This document shows, in pieces, positions 41,326-62,443 of a stretch of 64,000 nt of DNA (positions are counted from its first letter, which is position 1; the number at the start of each line of letters is the position of its first letter). The position numbers and the translations under genes are program-made. The notes under the pieces were generated by a model. The model had not been told where the DNA came from, ran no database searches, and worked only from the letters and a program-made list of their open reading frames with translations. Origin of the DNA: an uncultured Christensenella sp. (GTDB lineage: Bacteria; Bacillota; Clostridia; Christensenellales; Pumilibacteraceae). The DNA lies in contig CAJUGC010000007.1 in NCBI GenBank assembly GCA_910585955.1, forward strand, positions 6,320 to 70,319, in the 5' to 3' direction.

Positions 41326-42702
41326 TTATGCTTTCTGTTTTAAGTATTTGTCTATATATTCGTCCTTGATACGCTTGAGTTCGCTTCTCGGAAGAATGGA
41401 GAGCAGTTCCCAGCCGAGGTCGAGCGTCTCTTCTATGCTGCGATTGGTATTGAAGCCCTGCGAAACATAACGGCGCTCGAACTCCTCGGCGAACTTAGCG
41501 TACTTCTTGTCTGTCTCCGTAAGAGCCGCGTCGCCGAGTATGGCTGAAAGCTCCTTGGCTTCCTTGCCGAGCGAGTATGCGGCAAACAACTGGTTCATCG
41601 TGTCGGCGTGATCCTCGCGCGTCTTGTTTTTGCCTATACCTTTGTCCTTTAATCGGGACAGGCTGGGCAAAACGTCTATAGGTGGGTTGAAGCCTTTTTT
41701 GTAGAGCTCGCGCGAGAGGATTATCTGCCCCTCGGTTATATAGCCAGTAAGGTCCGGTATCGGGTGTGTCTTATCGTCCTCGGGCATGGTAAGAATGGGG
41801 ATTTGAGTTATCGATCCTTTCTTGCCGCGAATACGTCCGGCACGCTCGTAGAGCGAAGCGAGGTCGGTATACATATAACCCGGATAGCCGCGGCGACCCG
41901 GTACTTCCTTTCGAGCCGCAGACACTTCGCGCATTGCTTCCGCGTAATTCGTTATGTCGGTCATTATGACGAGCACATGCATTCCCTTGTCGAATGCGAG
42001 ATATTCCGCCGCCGTAAGCGCCATACGCGGCGTCGAGATACGCTCTATGGCGGGGTCGTCGGCAAGGTTCATAAATAGCACCGTGCGCTCGATCGCGCCC
42101 GTCTTGCGAAAGTCGTCGATAAAGAATTCGGCTTCCTCGTAGGTTATGCCTATGGCGGCGAACACTACGGCGAAGCTTTCGCCCTTGCCGAGCACTTTAG
42201 CTTGGCGTGCGATTTGAGCCGCAAGGTTGGCGTGCGGAAGTCCGCTCATCGAAAACACGGGGAGTTTCTGACCGCGAACGAGCGTGTTGAGTCCGTCGAT
42301 CGCCGAAACGCCGGTCTGAATAAACTCATCCGGATAGTCGCGCGCGGCGGGGTTTATAGGCTGACCGTTGACATCCATGCGCTTTTCGGCGATTATGTCC
42401 GCGCCGCCGTCCTTGGGTCTGCCCATGCCGTCGAACACGCGTCCGAGCATATCGATGGACACGGGAAGTTCTATGCTCTTGCCGAGAAAGCGCGCCTTTG
42501 CCGTGCTTATTTTAAGCCCCTGGCTGACTTCGAAGAGCTGAACGAGCGCTTTGTCTCTGTTTATTTCGAGCACTTTGCCCTGTCGTATTTCGCCGTTTGC
42601 CTGCTCTATTTCGACAAGCTCGTTGTACTTTACGTCCTCTACGCCCTCAACGAGCATCAAGGGACCTACGACTTCACTTATACTGCGATATTCCTTTAAC
42701 AT
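41326..42702 (-). CDS. ntpB: V/A-type ATP synthase subunit B
   Basis: 458 aa. [29 protein letters not shown] and [15 protein letters not shown] are typical of the non-catalytic B subunit. The start overlaps the ntpA stop by 1 nt. Confidence 0.95.
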
Positions 42703-44462
42703 CAGTCACTCTCCTTGCCTGCCGCTTCGGCAAGTTCGCCGCTCATCTGCGCGTCGATACCGTCGAATTCGGCTATGCGCTCCTCGGGAATATACTTGCT
42801 TCTGCCTATCTTCTCCCTCGCGCTTATGCCGAGCACTTTGTCGAGCGCCGCTCCGCCCTCGAGCGCCGAGAGCGAACGTCGATAGCAGTCGATGATAAGT
42901 TTGAGCATACGATACTGCTTGTTAAGCGACGTGTAAGTATCCACCTCGTGGAAGGCGTTTTGGTGGAGATAGTCCTCGCGCACGGCTTTCGCCGTCTCCA
43001 TGGTAAGCCTGTCGCGCGGTGAAAGCGCGTCCATGCCGACGAGGCGGACTATTTCGTCAAGCTGCGCCTCTTCCTGAAGTATGCGCATTGCCTCGGCGCG
43101 ATAGTTGTTGAAGTCTCGCGCGACATTCGACGTATACCAAGACGCAAGACGGTCGGCATATAGGCTATAGCTCGTAAGCCAATCTATAGCGGGGAAATGC
43201 CGCTTATACGCAAGGCTTGCCGACAAGCCCCAATAAACTTTTACTATGCGAAGCGTCGCCTGCGAGACGGGTTCGGACATATCGCCGCCAGGAGGAGAGA
43301 CAGCGCCGATTGCCGTGACGCTCCCCACCCTGTCGCCGCTTCCGAGCACGGACACCTTGCCCGCGCGCTCGTAGAACTCGGCAAGACGGCTCGAGAGATA
43401 TGCGGGATAGCCTTCCTCGCCCGGCATTTCCTCGAGTCTGCCCGACATCTCGCGCAGAGCTTCCGCCCAACGCGACGTGGAGTCCGCCATAATCGCGACG
43501 TTGTAGCCCATGTCGCGGAAATACTCGGCTATCGTTATGCCCGTGTATATGCTCGCTTCGCGCGCCGCAACCGGCATATCCGAAGTGTTGGCTATTAGCA
43601 CGGTGCGCTTCATGAGCGGCTTACCCGTCTTGGGGTCGCTGAGCTCGGGGAACTCGTTGAGAACGTCGGTCATTTCGTTGCCGCGCTCGCCGCAGCCGAC
43701 GTAGACTATGATGTCCGCGTCCGCCCACTTCGCGAGCTGGTGCTGAACTACCGTCTTGCCCGAGCCGAACGGTCCTGGAACTGCCGCGACGCCGCCTTCG
43801 GCTATCGGGAACAGAGTGTCTATTACGCGCTGCCCGGTTACGAGCGGGCGGGCGGGCGGAAGTTTGGACTTGTAAGGGCGACCGCGACGCACCGGCCACT
43901 TCTGCGCCATACGGATATTGACGGTACCGTTTTCGTCCTTTAAGGTGGCTACGGTCTCGTCTATGTTGAAACTGCCTTCTTCTATGCTTGCAACGACGCC
44001 GCTCTTTCCGGGAGGAACCATTATGCGGTGCTCGATGACTTCGTTCTCGCGGACGGTGCCTATAATGTCGCCGCCCGTCACCTTATCGCCCACTTTTACC
44101 GTCGGCAAAAAGTCCCATTTCTTTTTATGATCGAGAGCTGGCACTTCGAGTCCTCTTCCTATCCTGTCGCCGCTCTTTTCCACAAGCATATTCAAGGGGC
44201 GCTGTATGCCGTCGTAAATGCTTTCGATAAGTCCCGGTCCGAGCTCGACGGACAGCGGCGCGTTTGTAGACACAACGTCTTCGCCCGTGCCGAGCATACT
44301 CGTCTCTTCATAGACCTGAATGGACGCTTTGTCGCCGCGAAGCTCTATGACTTCGCCGATGAGTCGGCGCGACGAAACGCGCACGACGTCGTACATCTTT
44401 ACGTCCGCCATGCCTTCCGCAACTATGAGCGGTCCGCTGACCTTAACAATTTTACCTTTCAT
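42702..44462 (-). CDS. ntpA: V/A-type ATP synthase catalytic subunit A
   Basis: 586 aa with [18 protein letters not shown], the Walker A motif GPFGSGKTV, and [22 protein letters not shown]. Confidence 0.96.
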
Positions 44463-55828: not shown

Positions 55829-56605
55829 TTAACCGAAATACGGAAGATATTTGCGGATAAAATCGATCACTATATCCGACGGTATCTCGTATTTCATGCC
55901 GTCGGCGTGCTCGTTTTCACTGAGCATTGCCGCCGCAACATGTACGCCTATAACTTTGCCGCGCTCGTTGAAAACAGGTCCGCCCGAATTGCCGCCGTTA
56001 GTCGCACAGTCTGTCATGATGCGAGGACGTCCTTCAACAGTACGTCTGCGATCGCTTACTATGCCGCGAGTTATGCAGGTGCCGTGACCGAGCGAATTGC
56101 CTATGACGAACACCGGCTCACCCGTGCGGACGTTTGAAAAGTCCTCGAACTCGAGCACGGTCGCTTTTTCGGGCACGCTTGCGAGCTTAAGGAGCGCAAG
56201 GTCGTCTCCGCGATAGTATTCTCCGCTTCCCGCCACGCTGCCCACGCCTATAACTCGAGCCGTGACGCGTTGACCCGCGATATTTACGTTGACGCTTCCG
56301 ACGGCTTCACTGCCGTTCAGAACAACATGAGCGTTCGTAATCCCGTAGCCGTCGCGCGTAATCAAAAGTCCGCTTCCCGAAAACACGCCTCTGTTGCTCT
56401 TCCAGCTTATCTCGAGCACGCCGCCGACCGTACTTTCGAAAATGTCTACTCCGTTCTGGTTATTGACGCTTGCCTGCGTGCGCGAACTTACCGCCGCCGC
56501 AACCTCGAAATCTTCGGCGGAAAACGCGGCTCCGCAAAAGTTACACTTATAATTGCCGCCTCCGAGGTCTTTACAGCTGCCGCCGCAGTTCTTGCAAGTT
56601 TTCAT
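55829..56605 (-). CDS. Trypsin-like (S1/HtrA-type) serine protease with an N-terminal zinc ribbon; no signal peptide, no PDZ domain
   Basis: 258 aa. The N-terminus MKTCKNCGGSC...YKCNFCG has a CxxC...CxxC arrangement. The catalytic triad context is TNAHVV (His), DDLALLKL (Asp) and GGNSGGPVF (Ser). An AAGGAG RBS is present. The gene starts 23 nt downstream of the AAA ATPase gene. Confidence 0.85.
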   Translation of the reverse strand: MKTCKNCGGSCKDLGGGNYKCNFCGAAFSAEDFEVAAAVSSRTQASVNNQNGVDIFESTVGGVLEISWKSNRGVFSGSGLLITRDGYGITNAHVVLNGSEAVGSVNVNIAGQRVTARVIGVGSVAGSGEYYRGDDLALLKLASVPEKATVLEFEDFSNVRTGEPVFVIGNSLGHGTCITRGIVSDRRRTVEGRPRIMTDCATNGGNSGGPVFNERGKVIGVHVAAAMLSENEHADGMKYEIPSDIVIDFIRKYLPYFG

Positions 56606-56628: not shown

Positions 56629-58728
56629 TTATTCGTTCGAGCCCTTCCACTCGAGCAATTTTTCTATGTCCTCGCTTTGCACCGAAGACGTGACTTTTTC
56701 GAATGCCGCGACTACGTCGTCGTTGCAAAGTTTCTTTTCTCCCGTTTTTATCGCACGCAAAGCGGATTGCTCCTCCGCTTTATCGAGAAGCGCTGTTATG
56801 TCCGAACCGTTAAAACCGTTTGACTTTTCGACTGCCGCCGCAACGTCTATGTCGTCGGATACTGCCACTATGCCCTTTTCGCGTATCTTTTCGATTCGAC
56901 GCATAAGCATATATTCGCGCGCGGGCGCGTCGGGCAATCCCACATACACGCGCGTACCGAATCGTCCCGGGCGAACGAAAGCGCTGTCTACATCCCACGG
57001 CTTGTTTGTAGCCGCTATAAGGAAGAGAATGTTGTCCTTCTTTTTGCCGTACGATTCTATGCCCTGAAGCTGGGACAGAAGCTCGCTTCGAAGCTGTTTT
57101 GCGTATTGCGATTTCGTAGACTTGGGGGAAATCGAATCCATTTCGTCAAAGTAAATGACGGCGCACGGAAATTCACGAGCCTGTGCAAACAGCGCACGCA
57201 CGGCTTTTTCCGTATTGCCCACGCCTTGATTGAGAAGATCGGACGGCTTTACGGAGCAGAACTTTGCGCCTATCTCGTTGGCTATCGCCGCCGCTATCAT
57301 GGTTTTGCCCGTGCCCGGAGGTCCGTACAGCAATAGTCCTCCACCGCTCTTTCTGACGTAACCCTCGAATACCTCCGGGTTTTGCAGAGGCAACAGAACT
57401 TTTACGCGCACGACTTCCTTTACGTCGTCCAGCCCTGCAATATCGTCGAAATTTATTACGGGCAGACTGTCCCAATCGAATTTGTATTCGCTTGCCGGTC
57501 CCGTGCCTTCTTCGAGCACTTTCTCCTCGGGCGTAAGCGCTTTGTCATCTTTAGGCGCCGGCTTAGGCGGCTCGGACTTAGGCTTAGGCGGCTCGTTTCT
57601 TTGAGAAGTCTCTTTGGACGCGACTGGCTCGCAATAGCGTACCTCGGACGGAAGGTCGTCTATCGTAATGGTAGTCATAGTATCGTTGTCGGGGTCGGAA
57701 AGTCTCGCCACTCTTCCCGACTGACGCGTGACGATGTTCTCGAAAAGGTTGCGCACGTCTCTTCCGTTTCCGAAATTCTCGTTCCTGTTCTCATAGAGAC
57801 TGCGGAAATAGTCCTTGAGCGCAAAGCGAGCGTCCGCATCCACCGCATAATGATTTTTCTTGCAAGTCACATCGAATATTCCGTATAACTCGCTTCCGTT
57901 GTAATCGTCGAAGTTTATGAACGTCTTAAAACGCGAGCGAAGTCCCGGATTCGACTTTATGAACTTCTCCATGGGCTTGTCGTAACCCGCGACTATGACG
58001 ACGAGATTAGAGCGTTTGTCCTCCATTTCCTTTAAAAGCGTATCTATAGCTTCCTGCCCGAAATCGTTTGCACCGCCGTTTGCAAGCGCATACGCTTCGT
58101 CTATGAACAGCACGCCGCCGTACGCCTTTTTGAGTACGTCTTTTGTCTTGACCGCAGTCTGTCCCACATAGCCCGCAACAAGCCCGCTTCTGTCCACCTC
58201 GACGAGCTGACCCTCCGACAGTATGCCGAGCGCACAATAAATCTGCGCCATAAGTCTGGCGACCGTCGTCTTACCCGTGCCCGGATTGCCCGTAAATACG
58301 AGATGATACGACATATCGGGGACGGGAAGTCCTCTGTCTTTACGCATTTTAAAGACTTTTATTTGGTCTATCCAATCGCCGACTTTGCTTTTGACGGTAG
58401 AAAGGCCGACGAGAGCATTGAGACGAGAGAGCGCTTCCTCAAGCGAAATTTTTTCGTTTTTCACCGCAGTCACGGAGCTTGAAGTCTCTTCCTCTTGTAC
58501 CGCCTTTTTCTCTACGCCTATGCTTTCGGCTTTCTCGATAAGACTCTTTGCACGGTTGAAACGCGCCTTTTGCAGCTCGCCTTCGCTTGCCTTTGCCATT
58601 TTCAGCATTTGCTCTGCGGCAAGCATGAAATAGCGTTTTGCCAAGAACTTATCGCCTTTCTCGAGACAAGATTTTGCCTTGCCGAAATACAAGTCGAAAG
58701 TCTCGCTAAGCATACTCAGATTATCCAT
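56629..58728 (-). CDS. Tandem AAA+ ATPase: MIT-like N-terminal helical domain, SpoVK/CbbX-type AAA domain, Pro/Lys-rich linker, Vps4/FtsH-type AAA domain
   Basis: 699 aa. The N-terminus KAKSCLEKGDKFLAKRYFMLAAEQMLKMAKASEGELQKARFNRAKSLIEKAESI parallels the Vps4 MIT layout (...Y..A.e.fl......k....RAK...yLdRAEkL). D1 has LEEALSRLNALVGLSTVK and HLVFTGNPGTGKTTVARLMA, then VLFIDEAY. D2 has FDDIAGLDDVKEVVRVKVLLPLQNPEVF, LLLYGPPGTGKTMIAAAIANE, VIYFDEMD and ATNKPWDVDSAFVRPGRF. Confidence 0.85.
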   Translation of the reverse strand: MDNLSMLSETFDLYFGKAKSCLEKGDKFLAKRYFMLAAEQMLKMAKASEGELQKARFNRAKSLIEKAESIGVEKKAVQEEETSSSVTAVKNEKISLEEALSRLNALVGLSTVKSKVGDWIDQIKVFKMRKDRGLPVPDMSYHLVFTGNPGTGKTTVARLMAQIYCALGILSEGQLVEVDRSGLVAGYVGQTAVKTKDVLKKAYGGVLFIDEAYALANGGANDFGQEAIDTLLKEMEDKRSNLVVIVAGYDKPMEKFIKSNPGLRSRFKTFINFDDYNGSELYGIFDVTCKKNHYAVDADARFALKDYFRSLYENRNENFGNGRDVRNLFENIVTRQSGRVARLSDPDNDTMTTITIDDLPSEVRYCEPVASKETSQRNEPPKPKSEPPKPAPKDDKALTPEEKVLEEGTGPASEYKFDWDSLPVINFDDIAGLDDVKEVVRVKVLLPLQNPEVFEGYVRKSGGGLLLYGPPGTGKTMIAAAIANEIGAKFCSVKPSDLLNQGVGNTEKAVRALFAQAREFPCAVIYFDEMDSISPKSTKSQYAKQLRSELLSQLQGIESYGKKKDNILFLIAATNKPWDVDSAFVRPGRFGTRVYVGLPDAPAREYMLMRRIEKIREKGIVAVSDDIDVAAAVEKSNGFNGSDITALLDKAEEQSALRAIKTGEKKLCNDDVVAAFEKVTSSVQSEDIEKLLEWKGSNE

Positions 58729-58804: not shown

Positions 58805-59377
58805 TTATATGCCCGAATCTATTTTCTTTTTCAGGGCTTCGAGTTCCTTGTCTATCATGCTTTCGGTCATGCCGTCCGCCGCCGCGGTATTCGTGAACAA
58901 CGCCTCGATCTCGGCGTTTTCGCTCTCGCTCGACATCGTGCCCGTCGAAAAAGCGGACTGTGTGTCGTCCATGAAATTCTCGAGCTGTTCCGTCTGCATT
59001 TCCATACCCATCATGGCTTCGTTGAACTGCTTTTGAACCTTTAAGAAATCTTTTTCTTTCGTGATTTTCATCATATCTTTGGAAAGCGAACTCATGCCGT
59101 CCAAAAACTGCACTGTCATCTGCGACATATCCTTCATCTGCGAGGTTATTTCGAAATTAAGCTTCATCTCATACACTCGCTTTTGCTGCGTGAGCGTCAT
59201 TTTAAGTCCGGACAGCGCAAGATTATACTGAGCGGTCAAGCCCTTTTGCTTCGCCGTCTTGCCGGCTTCTATGTAAACTTTTTTTTGCTCCTCGAGCTTT
59301 TGTATCTGCTTGTTCATGGTGTTGATCGTCTTATTGATCAACATCTTCTTTTCAAGTTCTTTTTTCGTATTTGCCAT
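58805..59377 (-). CDS. ESCRT-III-superfamily protein, CHMP2/3 (Vps2/Vps24)-like, with a C-terminal MIM1-like motif
   Basis: 190 aa, all-helical. It lines up by eye with CHMP3: IQKLEEQKKVYIEAGKTAKQKG against IRDIQREEEKVKRSVKDAAKKGQ, and LSKDMMKITKEKDFLKVQKQFNEAMMGMEMQTEQLENFMDD against STEVMKAMQSL..IQATMRELSKEMMKAGIIEEMLEDTFES. An acidic linker follows. The C-terminus ESMIDKELEALKKKI fits (D/E)xxLxxRLxxL(K/R), apart from Glu at the Arg position and Ile at the first Leu. Confidence 0.6.
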   Translation of the reverse strand: MANTKKELEKKMLINKTINTMNKQIQKLEEQKKVYIEAGKTAKQKGLTAQYNLALSGLKMTLTQQKRVYEMKLNFEITSQMKDMSQMTVQFLDGMSSLSKDMMKITKEKDFLKVQKQFNEAMMGMEMQTEQLENFMDDTQSAFSTGTMSSESENAEIEALFTNTAAADGMTESMIDKELEALKKKIDSGI

Positions 59378-59518
59378 TATCTAAATCATACTCCATTTTA
59401 ATAAAATCGGTTGAAGCGCTCTTTCACGCAAGTCTTGTCACCTCTTTCGTGGCTTGGAATCGACATAGCACGCAAGACGGACAAAAGCGGCACGCCGCCG
59501 AAACGTGATAAATGCGTT

Positions 59519-60112
59519 TCAGATATCGGTTGCGTCCGCCTTTACCTTAGGCGTTTCGGAGAACATCTCCTCCTCGTCCGCGACCTGTTCCTCTTCCTCG
59601 AACATTGCGAGAAGCGCGTTGTCTTGCTCGTTCATGCCGTAAATAGTCTGATTTACGTCGTACGCCTCTTCTATGCCTTTAAACGTCTCGTCCGCAGACG
59701 TCAGCACATCCTCTGCGGCGACTCTCGTATTCAGCGTCTTATTGAGGAACTTCGCAAGTCCTTTCTGATCGGCAAGGAGATTCCCGAGCGACGCTTTCGA
59801 CGTGTTTTTGAAAAACTTGTTGTCGTCTATGGCGTTTTTGAGTTTTTGAAGCATTTGGATATTGTACATTATGTACATATCGCGTTGCACGCTCTGTTCA
59901 CGTTCGGCTTTTAAGGCATTTATCTTTTTAGCGTACAAAAGTTTAAGACTTTTATCCTTTTCGGCTTTGCCCTTAGCCATCATGTCGTCAATCTGCTTCT
60001 GACCGGAAAGAAGCCCGTCCTCGATTTCTTTGGACTGCTGTTCGAGCTCGCAAATAGCCTTTACGACTTCTTCACGCGTCAACTTATCGTATTTGCTTTT
60101 AAAAGGCCACAT
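59519..60112 (-). CDS. ESCRT-III-superfamily protein, Snf7/CHMP4-like
   Basis: 197 aa. It starts MWPFKSK (yeast Snf7 starts MWSSLFGW). EEVVKAICELEQQSKEIE...GKAEKDKSLKLLYAKKINALKAEREQ follows the Snf7 alpha1-alpha2 hairpin pattern (AI..L.....L.kk......a....gnk..A...LkkKK..E.q). The C-terminal tail is acidic (EEEEQVADEEE). Confidence 0.55.
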   Translation of the reverse strand: MWPFKSKYDKLTREEVVKAICELEQQSKEIEDGLLSGQKQIDDMMAKGKAEKDKSLKLLYAKKINALKAEREQSVQRDMYIMYNIQMLQKLKNAIDDNKFFKNTSKASLGNLLADQKGLAKFLNKTLNTRVAAEDVLTSADETFKGIEEAYDVNQTIYGMNEQDNALLAMFEEEEQVADEEEMFSETPKVKADATDI

Positions 60113-60123
60113 AATTCCTCCGC

Positions 60124-60450
60124 CTATATCTTAGCGTTTCTGTCTGCTAACGTGAGCTTTATCTGCGTCAACAGATTTTCGGCCTTCTTGGTAGTCTCGC
60201 CGTCGCCTTTCGTGAGAGCTATACGCATATCGCCTATAAGGTCTCTGATTTTCTTATCGCAAGACTGGACTTCTTTCGTCTCGGTTGCTATAAGATACTT
60301 TAGCTTTTCTTGAAGCTCTTTGAGCTGATCTGTCAAATATTCGTTACCGTCCGCAAGAACCAAAAGAGCTTCGATCGCCTTATTGTTCTGCTCGACGAGT
60401 TCCTTGTCTTCGCGCGTCTTTTCCGACGCTTTCTTTTTAAAGAAAAACAT
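60124..60450 (-). CDS. Small (108 aa) all-helical protein of unknown function within the ESCRT-III-like operon
   Basis: An AAGGAG RBS lies 7 nt upstream. The gene sits 12 nt after the SPFH gene and 11 nt before the Snf7-like gene. It is charged and helical (KELVEQNNKAIEALLVLADGNEYLTDQLKELQEKLKYL...). Confidence 0.65.
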   Translation of the reverse strand: MFFFKKKASEKTREDKELVEQNNKAIEALLVLADGNEYLTDQLKELQEKLKYLIATETKEVQSCDKKIRDLIGDMRIALTKGDGETTKKAENLLTQIKLTLADRNAKI

Positions 60451-60462
60451 ATTTTCGCTCCT

Positions 60463-61521
60463 TTACTTTAATTTGTTTCCGCAGGTTGCGCAGAACATTG
60501 CGTCGGCTTCGTTGTTGCTCCCGCACTTGGGGCAAGCGGTCTTTTCTTTCACGAGCCTGTTGCCGCAATTAGGACAGAATATAGCGGCCGCAGTATAGGG
60601 CTTTCCGCAATTCGAGCAAAAAAGCGACGCGCCCGACGGTATGCCTGCCGCACCGGCGCCCACACCGACGACCGGCGCATGACCTATGACTTTCAAAACG
60701 TCGTAATACGCGTTCTTGTCCTGAAGCTCGAGTTGACGCAAATACTTATCGCGCTCCCATTGCTTGTCGTCGAGACGTTCGATCTCCGCAAGATATTCTT
60801 TAAGCTTCTTTTCTCGTTCTTCCTTGAGTCGCTTTTCGGCAGCTGCGTTTTCCACAGCCGCTTTGTCGCTCGCGTCTATTCCCACCCACTCGATTATGAA
60901 GTCGGTGAGACCAACGCCCCAACTCTTTTCAAATTTAGGCGAAAGTATGCCGCCGACTGTTATACCGATGTCCTTTTTATGCGCGTCGAACTGATCGTAT
61001 GTAAGCTTTCTTTCGGCAACGGCTTTCAGAAATGCGTCCGAAAACTCGTTTACCACTTCAGCCGAAAAGCGGGTTTGGAAATCATCCTTGTCGAACTCGC
61101 GGCGAACGCCTACTACTTTACGGAAAAACTGTTCGGGATTTGCTATCGTCACACCGAACTGACCGCGCGCACCGATGTTGACAACATGGTTGCTCGCTTC
61201 ATCCCTGTAGGTAAAACGTTGCGGCGTGCCCCAGAATACGATGAGACTGCAATCTTTGGGCATATAGATTACGTCAACCGAAAAGCCTTTCTTCCAAGCT
61301 TTTATTTCCTTACGATCGTCAAACACGTCGTAAGCTCCGCTCTTGTAAAAACGCGCGTCTCCGCCGCCCTTTATTATATATGCGTTGTGCGTATAGGGCA
61401 CTTCTATCATCGCGTGTTTGTCTCTTATCTCATCCGCCACGCGAACAAAGAGCACGCTGTTATCGTTTATGTCGGCATTGCAATGATTCTGCTCGAACTT
61501 GACAATCTGCGGTTTTCCCAT
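60463..61521 (-). CDS. SPFH-superfamily protein of the YdjI ('virion core protein-like', COG4260) type with a C-terminal double zinc ribbon
   Basis: 352 aa. The N-terminal 230 aa (…YIIKGGGDARFYKSGAYDV…VFWGTPQRFTYRD…VNIGARGQFGVTIANPEQFFRKVVG…WGVGLTDFIIEWVGIDAS) resemble YdjI-type SPFH domains. A coiled coil follows (KRLKEEREKKLKEYLAEIERL). The C-terminus is CSNCG..CPNCG...CPKCG..CATCG, four CxxC pairs. Confidence 0.7.
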   Translation of the reverse strand: MGKPQIVKFEQNHCNADINDNSVLFVRVADEIRDKHAMIEVPYTHNAYIIKGGGDARFYKSGAYDVFDDRKEIKAWKKGFSVDVIYMPKDCSLIVFWGTPQRFTYRDEASNHVVNIGARGQFGVTIANPEQFFRKVVGVRREFDKDDFQTRFSAEVVNEFSDAFLKAVAERKLTYDQFDAHKKDIGITVGGILSPKFEKSWGVGLTDFIIEWVGIDASDKAAVENAAAEKRLKEEREKKLKEYLAEIERLDDKQWERDKYLRQLELQDKNAYYDVLKVIGHAPVVGVGAGAAGIPSGASLFCSNCGKPYTAAAIFCPNCGNRLVKEKTACPKCGSNNEADAMFCATCGNKLK

Positions 61522-61589: not shown

Positions 61590-61618
61590 ATTATAATAGA
61601 TTTTTCGGAAATAGTCAA
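61590..61618 (-). promoter_or_regulatory. Sigma-70-type promoter of the SPFH / ESCRT-III-like / AAA / protease operon
   Basis: On the minus strand: TTGACT (61618-61613), a 17-nt spacer, then TATAAT (61595-61590), about 70 nt upstream of the SPFH ATG. Confidence 0.5.
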
Positions 61619-61873
61619 GAACGTAGAGATTAGAAGTAGATTAAAAAGGGAAAAATTGTTCCACTAAAACGATCGTCTTTTTTTCGCTTTCATTGAATAA
61701 ATCAAACTGTTTTGACCGAATTGCCCACGCTTACCTGTTTGCCTTTTCTGTTTACGCCGTCGGGACGAAATGCGCCGTCTTAATGAATATAAGCAAAAAC
61801 ACGTTTAGCAAAAACGACGAAACGAAAAGCGCCTGAATTCAATCAAGCGCTTTTATCATAACGATTTCGGAAA

Positions 61874-62311
61874 TTATAAATAGTGTTTCATCTCGTCGAG
61901 ATTCTTTTGTTCGATACATTTCAGTCTATAAGCGAGATTCACCGCGTCGTCATCGCAACTTTCGCAGTTTTTAAGCTGTTTCGTCACGTCGATTATTCCC
62001 ATTGTACTACCTTGCACTACCATCTCCGCAATGTGCTCGTTCGACTTATCCATTAGCATTTTCACGTTTATCATCGCACGGGCGCATATTCCCGTAAACT
62101 TGTCATCGGAAGGCTGTTCGCCTAATATCGCGAGTTTGTCCTTTGCCTGACGCTCGATATGGCGATATTCGGCAACTTGAGATTCCAAAGTCGCCTTAAG
62201 CCTTTCGTCTTTTACGTCGGAAAGAACGGTTTCGAGATTGTCCGCTCCCATTTTGGCATTTTTGCCTAAGTACTTTAAAAGTTGCGTATTCTTTTCTTTG
62301 TCGCCGTTCAT
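61874..62311 (-). CDS. Hypothetical helical protein (possible four-helix bundle)
   Basis: I place the start at MNGDKEKNTQLLKYLGKNAKMG (ATG 62309-62311, GAGGAG 8 nt upstream). 145 aa, helical. No recognised catalytic motif. Confidence 0.6.
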   Translation of the reverse strand: MNGDKEKNTQLLKYLGKNAKMGADNLETVLSDVKDERLKATLESQVAEYRHIERQAKDKLAILGEQPSDDKFTGICARAMINVKMLMDKSNEHIAEMVVQGSTMGIIDVTKQLKNCESCDDDAVNLAYRLKCIEQKNLDEMKHYL

Positions 62312-62443
62312 GATACATTTCTCCTCGAATATATTATGCATGACAAAGACAATAGTTATGCGCGGCATTTTGTCGACGGCAAACTTTTTTGTTGATTTTT
62401 ACCGTCTTATGATGTATAATACCTAAAAGCGGAGGAGCGTTAC

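Follow-up and report, generated by a model that had tools for sequence, protein, structure and literature searches.

A protein of 197 amino acids, encoded in a 64,000-nucleotide stretch of DNA from an uncultured Christensenella sp. (contig CAJUGC010000007.1; this whole stretch is referred to as the window), very probably belongs to the ESCRT-III superfamily, although as a very divergent case, and is most likely placed on the Snf7-family side rather than on the PspA side. The gene is part of an operon of six tightly spaced minus-strand genes, which encode an SPFH protein, a 108-amino-acid protein, the 197-amino-acid protein, a 190-amino-acid protein, an ATPase and a protease. By analogy with known systems, the protein would function as a divergent ESCRT-III subunit in a membrane-remodeling module of SPFH, ESCRT-III and ATPase components, and this full mechanistic picture is considered fairly likely. 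The gene that is central to this analysis is located as follows.

59519..60112, minus strand: ATG-initiated open reading frame of the divergent ESCRT-III-like protein of 197 amino acids, third gene of the module.

This gene is real and under strong purifying selection. Compared with the closest species in the genome collection, a Christensenellaceae metagenome-assembled genome (MAG; locus L004), the nucleotide identity is 86.5%, and the differing codons comprise 65 synonymous and 5 non-synonymous ones. The translated protein starts with MWPFKSKYDKLTREEVVKAICELEQQSKEIE, contains the internal stretch KSLKLLYAKKINALKAEREQ and has the acidic tail MFEEEEQVADEEEMFSETPKVKADATDI, the end of which is off the MIM1 consensus. 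A preliminary description of this DNA had given the same reading frame, with the MWPFKSK start, the alpha1 and alpha2 strings and the acidic tail, all of which are confirmed by the list of open reading frames. It was also right in stating that a MIM1-like end is absent, but it overlooked a conserved, predicted amphipathic acidic helix at residues ~162-184 (DNALLAMFEEEEQV) with the family consensus DDxLLAxFE, which is a candidate autoinhibitory or MIT-binding element. Conserved segments in the family are LLxDQKxLAxFLN (residues 112-124) and IYG together with the DDxLLAxFE helix (residues 157-184), and the motifs DQKGLAKFLN, LTSADETF and IYG are specific to the family. The N-terminus reads MWPFKSK or MGLFKSK across the family and, at the level of sequence, resembles the N-termini of ESCRT-III proteins (compare MGLFGK in CHMP3). 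A strong charge asymmetry is present as well, with a pI of 9.2 for the N-terminal half and 4.05 for the C-terminal half (family median charges of +5 and -13).

The relationship to the Snf7 family was observed by profile-profile comparison. The reference was seeded with five sequences (CHMP2A, CHMP3, CHMP1B, CHMP4B and yeast Snf7), all of which are placed in Snf7 by Pfam (E=1e-16 to 1e-59). A database search with this seed returned CHMP2A orthologues at 99-100% identity and proteins named yeast Snf7/YLR025W and CHMP4B, and the final reference consists of 21 sequences (the 5 plus 16 retrieved orthologues). Alignment of the 118-sequence family of the 197-amino-acid protein to this reference with hhalign gave a score of 39.4, P=2.2e-5 and a probability of 76%, which is under the level of 90-95% above which a profile-profile probability is usually taken as proof. 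The register of this alignment pairs residues 1-95 with CHMP2A 2-107, that is, the N-terminal motif and the alpha1-alpha2 hairpin. Reversed-sequence controls gave P values of at least 0.2, and none of 100 heptad-block-shuffled decoys (mean 14.4, standard deviation 2.7, maximum 21.9) reached the real score, which is ~9 standard deviations above their mean. The known relationship between PspA and Snf7 gives only P=0.017 against the initial five-sequence reference. The family also scores as well against the Snf7 reference as that of the 190-amino-acid neighbor.

Structure prediction points in the same direction. An AlphaFold2 model based on an alignment of 51 sequences, which replaced an earlier model from a shallow alignment with a predicted local distance difference test score (pLDDT) of 61, has a pLDDT of 74.7, with values above 90 over the hairpin. 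In the protein's layout, the MWPFKSK motif at residues 1-9 is followed by predicted helices at residues 13-50 (alpha1), 54-106 (alpha2/3), 116-150 (alpha4) and 162-184, with the acidic tail in last place. The predicted fold, a long alpha1-alpha2 hairpin plus alpha3-alpha5 in ~200 amino acids, fits that of ESCRT-III. In a Foldseek search against the PDB, 18 of the 25 best matches are ESCRT-III, PspA or Vipp1 structures; the superfamily structures matched are CHMP1B, Vipp1, Shrub, CdvB2, Asgard ESCRT-IIIB, PspA, CHMP2A/3 and Loki CHMP4-7. The best match is CHMP1B (6tz4; E=0.085, TM-score 0.45-0.50, 165 columns), and the hairpin of Shrub superposes with a root-mean-square deviation of 2.1 A over 94 columns. 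The earlier claim of an ESCRT-III-like protein is thus supported by the in-register profile alignment, the predicted helix layout, the ESCRT-III-dominated structural matches and the charge asymmetry.

Several results weigh against this assignment. The protein has no Pfam or NCBIfam match, and none of 51 diverse family members matches Snf7 or PspA_IM30 with HMMER, even at E<=10. Searches of PDB chains with phmmer and with family profiles gave chance matches only, both for this family and for that of the neighbor. The confident profile alignment is limited to residues 1-95, the Snf7 reference profile contains few sequences, with a high share of CHMP2A, and the C-terminal half of the model is of low confidence, with a pLDDT of 43-67 over residues 101-170. 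The Foldseek E-values all lack significance, with none below 0.08, and the matches extend to helical hairpins of a generic kind, namely prefoldin, BAR and SMC coiled coils. Finally, direct comparison of the two neighboring families with hhalign does not reach significance (P=0.36 for shallow alignments, P=0.11 for deep ones), and no similarity between the two proteins was detected by BLASTP, so that the pair, which had been called paralogues, is not demonstrably so.

An unrelated helical-hairpin or coiled-coil adaptor, which would work with the Snf7-like neighbor and the ATPase, for instance in nucleation, in regulating the ATPase or in connecting to the SPFH scaffold, and which would look like ESCRT-III through convergence or composition, agrees with the missing Snf7 and PspA matches, with Foldseek E-values that are all above 0.08 and extend to other hairpins, and with the lack of significant similarity to the neighbor. 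The motifs DQKGLAKFLN, LTSADETF and IYG also have no ESCRT-III counterpart in the alignments. Such an adaptor is nevertheless quite unlikely, given the hhalign score so far above decoys that preserve the heptads, in register from residue 1, the equal score of a neighbor that does have Pfam Snf7 matches, and a size, helix lengths, N-terminal motif and basic/acidic split that all fit ESCRT-III.

In bacteria, the usual relative of ESCRT-III is PspA, which in Bacillus subtilis is linked to an SPFH protein, and the 197-amino-acid protein could in principle be a divergent PspA/LiaH-type phage-shock protein of Firmicutes. The PspA and Vipp1 structures among the Foldseek matches are in line with this, as is an hhalign match to Escherichia coli PspA plus Synechocystis Vipp1 (P=0.023), which covers 38 N-terminal columns only. 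This origin is very improbable, since the P value against the Snf7 reference is ~1000-fold better, PspA_IM30 is matched by 0/51 members, and a protein of 197 amino acids with an acidic C-terminal half and a MIT-AAA partner differs from PspA proteins with their PspF, PspBC or LiaIFSR-type partners. The PspA hidden Markov model found nothing in the whole window. The difference from ordinary bacterial PspA/Vipp1 that had been proposed earlier is therefore borne out by these results.

The subfamily is another matter. The protein had been labeled Snf7/CHMP4-like (B-type), and this label did not hold: a CHMP2A/3/1B reference gives P=1.1e-3 versus P=0.095 for a Snf7/CHMP4B reference, in a comparison in which the A-type reference is deeper (15 versus 6 sequences). 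The comparison is unbalanced because a search for more reference sequences of the Snf7 family yielded CHMP2A orthologues almost exclusively. The top structural match is CHMP1B, and the Pfam Snf7 matches belong to the neighbor. Membership of the ESCRT-IIIB or Snf7-CHMP4 subfamily is thus not supported by these values, with the unequal depth of the references in mind.

The gene of this neighbor is directly downstream in the operon.

58805..59377, minus strand: Snf7-family-like ESCRT-III protein of 190 amino acids with the MIM1-like C-terminus IDKELEALKKKI, obligate neighbor of the 197-amino-acid protein.
59491..59507, minus strand: weak terminator-like hairpin 12 nucleotides past the stop codon of the 197-amino-acid gene, from a consensus scan only.

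The 190-amino-acid gene, of which the product had been called Vps2/24-like, is real as well, with 51 synonymous versus 2 non-synonymous codon differences from L004. Pfam Snf7 matches the window protein weakly (E=0.027) and 19 of 28 diverse orthologues (best 4.6e-5), and with hhalign the family aligns to the Snf7 reference over 141 columns at P=5.3e-5. The MIM1-like motif IDKELExLKKKI at the C-terminus is conserved in all 28 orthologues. In every one of the 74 loci that are informative for this adjacency, the 197-amino-acid gene is directly upstream of the 190-amino-acid gene. The part of the preliminary description that saw a second ESCRT-III-like protein side by side with the first one is therefore supported, while the proposed mirror of the ESCRT-IIIA and ESCRT-IIIB subfamilies of Asgard archaea and eukaryotes stays an analogy, because the two proteins are not demonstrably paralogues. 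The intergenic gap between the two genes (59378-59518) is unusually long at 141 nucleotides; the other gaps in the operon are 11-76 nucleotides. The hairpin in this gap may be an attenuator or simply a chance occurrence, and together the gap and the weak hairpin could make the first and second halves of the operon differ in expression level.

Directly 3' of the 190-amino-acid gene is the gene of the partner ATPase, with the following domains.

56629..58728, minus strand: partner ATPase of 699 amino acids.
58489..58728, minus strand: MIT-like three-helix domain of the ATPase (residues 1-80), from alignment with the N-termini of ~370-amino-acid orthologues.
57649..58431, minus strand: D1 of the ATPase (residues ~100-360), a SpoVK/CbbX/EccA-type AAA domain with AAA_lid_6, an insertion specific to the clade of the window.
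56629..57480, minus strand: D2 of the ATPase (residues 417-699 plus the stop codon), a classical Cdc48/CdvC/Vps4-like AAA domain with a weak Vps4_C helix, from profile matches.

The ATPase is dimorphic. About half of the species have a form of ~370 amino acids and the clade of the window has a form of ~690 amino acids, with six intermediates of ~480-530 amino acids. The short form, judged by its sequence, has a Vps4/CdvC architecture: a MIT-like domain and a single classical AAA domain with the pore loop SKWVGESEK, followed by Vps4_C in 21/21. The NCBIfam CdvC model covers this form from end to end (6-360 to 6-366 of 370), at 209-218 bits versus a cut-off of 650. When the AAA domain is scored by itself, CDC48 comes out slightly ahead of CdvC, and orthology to Vps4 is unproven because the NCBIfam scores put this domain equally close to CdvC and to Cdc48 D2. 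For the N-terminal domain, Pfam MIT is matched in 3 of 28 cases (best 1.8e-6), the CdvC model aligns from residue 6, and a PDB profile match was obtained to the chitin synthase 1 domain 2mpk (E=0.14), a MIT domain. In the long form, an inserted SpoVK/CbbX-like AAA domain separates the MIT domain from the Vps4-like one; in the window copy this D1 has both Walker motifs intact, A as GNPGTGKT and B as VLFIDEA, and matches spore_V_K at 2.4e-89, as well as EccA and CbbX, and it is absent from the ~370-amino-acid forms. Both domains of the long forms keep Walker A and B, and all 31 lack the aromatic residue of pore loop 1 in the Vps4-like domain, which reads NQG[AV]GNTEK in 23 of them. The copy in the window is accordingly less favorable to a Vps4-like partner than the short form: it has no direct MIT match, its D2 combines intact Walker A and B motifs with the non-aromatic pore loop 1 NQGVGNTEK, and Vps4_C is matched at E=0.0021, below the gathering score. 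That the MIT-AAA ATPase is the functional partner of the 197-amino-acid protein is suggested by genomic linkage, as the two genes share the operon in all loci with enough sequence.

Upstream of the 197-amino-acid gene, the operon starts with two further genes and a promoter-like site.

61590..61618, minus strand: promoter-like site TTGACT-17-TATAAT with 11/12 matches, 69 nucleotides upstream of the start of the SPFH gene, a consensus match only.
60463..61521, minus strand: opening gene of the module, for an SPFH (Band_7_1) protein of 352 amino acids that has a coiled coil and, at the C-terminus, two zinc ribbons.
60124..60450, minus strand: helical protein of 108 amino acids without a family match, between the SPFH gene and the 197-amino-acid gene.

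From its sequence, the TTGACT-17-TATAAT site is likely the promoter of the operon. The SPFH protein is matched by Band_7_1 (E=2.7e-15), Zn_ribbon_3 (1.3e-11) and DZR (1.9e-9) in Pfam, and an SPFH gene was found upstream of the pair as open reading frames of 66 distinct loci, as well as beside the most divergent homologues. The 108-amino-acid protein starts with MFFFKKK and has no N-terminal transmembrane (TM) helix in the window. Its orthologues of 130-150 amino acids in more divergent clades do have such a helix (e.g., L042:6890-7327 and L059:7225-7638), and it is for this reason a candidate membrane anchor or adaptor. Comparison of its family with both ESCRT-III-like families using hhalign was not significant. 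In one subclade (L059:7638-7985; L060, L062-L065), an extra protein of ~115 amino acids is encoded between the small protein and the 197-amino-acid gene; it has no Pfam match and is related to the N-terminal zinc-ribbon/TPR region of the TIR-type proteins described below.

The family of the 197-amino-acid protein is narrow, yet it has many members. Full-length homologues form 641 clusters at 90% identity, and among 1.84 billion proteins 110 representatives at 50% identity were found, all of which belong to the same ~200-amino-acid family or are fragments of it. Relatives come from 71 species of GTDB; all of these are Clostridia, most of them gut MAGs of the Christensenellales type, and the identities within this lineage run continuously from 99% to 25%. 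The core of SPFH protein, small protein, 197- and 190-amino-acid proteins and ATPase is kept in essentially every locus with enough sequence, and even the most divergent homologues (25-28% identity) retain the module and its gene order. No relatives are present in phage, plasmid or IMG/VR collections, and an origin from a mobile element was rejected on that basis.

The remaining parts of the module are accessory, and the last gene of the operon is one of them.

55829..56605, minus strand: protein of 258 amino acids that combines a zinc ribbon at the N-terminus with a serine protease domain of the trypsin/HtrA type, final and accessory gene of the module.

This protease (Pfam Trypsin_2, 1.8e-26) has orthologues at 34 distinct loci, and the reading frame of the window matches 37 of 74 loci, about half. 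Large proteins in which a zinc ribbon is combined with TPR and TIR_2 domains, often with BspA-type LRR_5 repeats, accompany the module at 61 of the 77 loci considered for such neighbors; there are 1-2 per locus, encoded on the same strand and either flanking the module or lying within it. Examples are L004:2527-6456, L001:12128-16564, L005:9726-12467, L016:7771-9792, L042:8782-12297 and L075:6045-7175, and one of these proteins has 4Fe-4S ferredoxin motifs. The module in the window has no TIR gene because of a 3.9-kilobase (kb) indel relative to the closest species, L004, in which the insertion codes for a TIR-type protein of 1168 amino acids between the DUF2383 and SPFH genes (window ~61661-61867). 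The recurrence of the zinc ribbon on SPFH, protease and TIR proteins suggests a shared docking module. The DUF2383 gene itself (61874-62368, minus strand), for a PA2169-like four-helix-bundle protein, is just upstream of the module and is kept there only in the closest relatives, L001, L003, L004, L011 and L017. Elsewhere in the window, the GC content has a local peak of 0.579 at 42001-44000 versus ~0.48 in the rest. In the very divergent locus L076 (2818-5802), genes for a PP2C phosphatase, a Ser/Thr kinase and a VWA protein precede the module; this trio also occurs in other regulated membrane or conflict systems, both bacterial and archaeal.

Partners of this kind raise the question of an immune or conflict system of the abortive-infection type, in which the AAA ATPase and the zinc-ribbon effectors (TIR, protease) would be the active parts and the ESCRT-III-like pair would be membrane-directed effectors or factors for self-protection and repair. 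Only the role of the pair would change, as the ESCRT-III fold is compatible with it. TIR-type partners at 61/77 loci, the zinc-ribbon trypsin-like protease at about half of the loci and the upstream PP2C, Ser/Thr kinase and VWA genes in L076 argue for defense, and so does the variation of the accessory genes, of which the 3.9-kb TIR-type gene of the closest species is an example. The variable partners and the SPFH protein also share one type of N-terminal zinc ribbon, reminiscent of the effector-adaptor logic in NTP-dependent conflict systems (PMC7159879), and D2 of the AAA protein resembles IetA of the IetAS system (PADLOC 7.8e-41). This similarity is, however, weaker than that to Cdc48, CdvC or PAN, and in PADLOC-DB 2.0 system-specific matches are absent for five of the six proteins, with only generic AAA (IetA, TRIP13) and protease-domain similarity and no match for the 197-amino-acid or SPFH protein. 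The core synteny across 71 species of one lineage with continuous identities looks vertical, unlike patchy defense islands; phage, plasmid and IMG/VR collections hold no copies, and the module of the window itself is without a TIR gene. A defense role of the whole module is therefore considered unlikely.

The membrane-remodeling module, by contrast, could work as follows. The short hydrophobic and basic N-terminus (MWPFKSK) and the basic alpha1-alpha2 hairpin of the 197-amino-acid protein would bind the cytoplasmic membrane, and the protein would co-assemble with the 190-amino-acid Snf7-like protein into polymers. Both subunits may be recruited or organized by the SPFH/zinc-ribbon scaffold and the small protein, which is TM-anchored elsewhere, comparable to YdjI and YdjG/H for PspA. 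The acidic C-terminal halves would autoinhibit both ESCRT-III-like subunits, and their C-terminal helices, the MIM1-like IDKELExLKKKI in the 190-amino-acid protein and DDxLLAxFE in the 197-amino-acid protein, may be offered to the MIT domain of the ATPase. Vps4/CdvC ATPases remodel or disassemble ESCRT-III polymers, and the MIT-AAA ATPase would do the same here. The output would most likely be membrane repair or remodeling, possibly coupled in many species to the zinc-ribbon-tagged TIR proteins and the trypsin-like protease. A weakness of this scheme is that polymerization, membrane binding and MIT binding by the 197-amino-acid protein are predicted by analogy with Vps4/CdvC and pspA-ydjGHI.

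A more far-reaching proposal, which is put forward tentatively and is somewhat doubtful, is that Christensenellales-type gut Clostridia carry a complete, vertically inherited ESCRT-III/Vps4 machine, consisting of two subunits, a MIT-AAA disassemblase, a SPFH scaffold and an anchor, that acts on, sorts or guards against the zinc-ribbon-tagged TIR and protease proteins. If true, this would be a bacterial counterpart of ESCRT membrane repair or cargo handling that is coupled to immune-type effectors, and its origin would be either an ancient transfer from archaea to bacteria or an independent bacterial line of Snf7/Vps4 evolution. Confirmation would bear on when ATP-driven remodeling of ESCRT-III arose (transfer versus deep ancestry), on the recruitment of ESCRT-III proteins by SPFH scaffolds, and on the wiring of bacterial ESCRT-III machinery to TIR and protease proteins of the immune type. 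As a compact system of five or six genes, the module is a candidate for in vitro reconstitution. The finding is more interesting than it first appeared, owing to the ATPase of Vps4 type, the SPFH scaffold and the accompanying TIR and protease proteins; the MIT-AAA ATPase and the SPFH protein, which make up the strongest part of the context, had been overlooked in the preliminary description.

In full-text literature searches, no published description of the module was found, where absence is no proof of absence; the Menshen paper has no bearing on it. Both ESCRT-III-like families are invisible to domain-based surveys because they have no Pfam coverage, except for one Snf7-annotated cluster in the family of the 190-amino-acid neighbor. 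An ESCRT-III-like pair together with a Vps4-style ATPase and a SPFH protein is a combination that recent reviews say bacteria lack; in a 2025 review, a Vps4-like ATPase is described as apparently absent in bacteria. Transfer of VPS4-like ATPases to bacteria has been described, with Snf7 displaced by a protein with TPR and six TM helices (Ravi et al. 2024, PMC11237479). In the same study, PspA was observed beside a protein of the type 'inactive AAA + classical AAA', for example AEY64320/1 of Clostridium sp. BNL1100. What these contexts share with the module is that a classical AAA ATPase of bacteria, in some cases with a second AAA domain, is tied to a protein of the PspA/Snf7 superfamily. They differ in that the module keeps two Snf7-like genes and has a partner that is not PspA, in that the Walker A and B motifs of the N-terminal AAA domain are intact, and in the MIT-like domain of the ATPase and the SPFH, TIR and protease partners.

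The pspA-ydjGHI operon of B. subtilis provides a parallel for the scaffold. Here, the SPFH protein YdjI and the membrane anchors YdjG/YdjH recruit PspA, which has the ESCRT-III fold, and YdjG starts with a CxxC zinc-ribbon-like motif, as read from a primer sequence (PMC8581546). Similarly, the module combines a zinc-ribbon-bearing SPFH (Band_7_1) protein with a small protein for which many species have a TM-anchored version. In contrast to pspA-ydjGHI, it contains two ESCRT-III-like proteins that are not PspA_IM30, plus a MIT-AAA ATPase in the operon; the psp and lia systems have no Vps4-like ATPase (PMC7619361).

With the ESCRT-III and Vps4 systems of archaea (Cdv or minimal ESCRT systems, with CdvB-type paralogues and CdvC/Vps4), Asgard archaea and eukaryotes, the module has in common at least two ESCRT-III-like proteins of ~190-220 amino acids beside an ATPase that has a MIT-like domain at the N-terminus, one classical AAA domain and a Vps4_C helix. 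One of its subunits, the 190-amino-acid protein, ends in a MIM1-like motif, both have a basic N-terminal and an acidic C-terminal half, and the ~370-amino-acid form of its ATPase, present in about half of the species, has the pore loop SKWVGESEK. Archaeal ESCRT loci likewise recruit SPFH and zinc-ribbon proteins (PMC10936438). Unlike these systems, the module is found in a bacterial host (Clostridia), both of its ESCRT-III-like proteins are far under the Pfam Snf7 thresholds, and it is without CdvA and without winged-helix proteins of the ESCRT-I/II type. The extra SpoVK-like AAA domain and the degenerate D2 pore loop in the clade of the window, together with the TIR and protease partners, further set it apart from the Cdv and ESCRT machineries.

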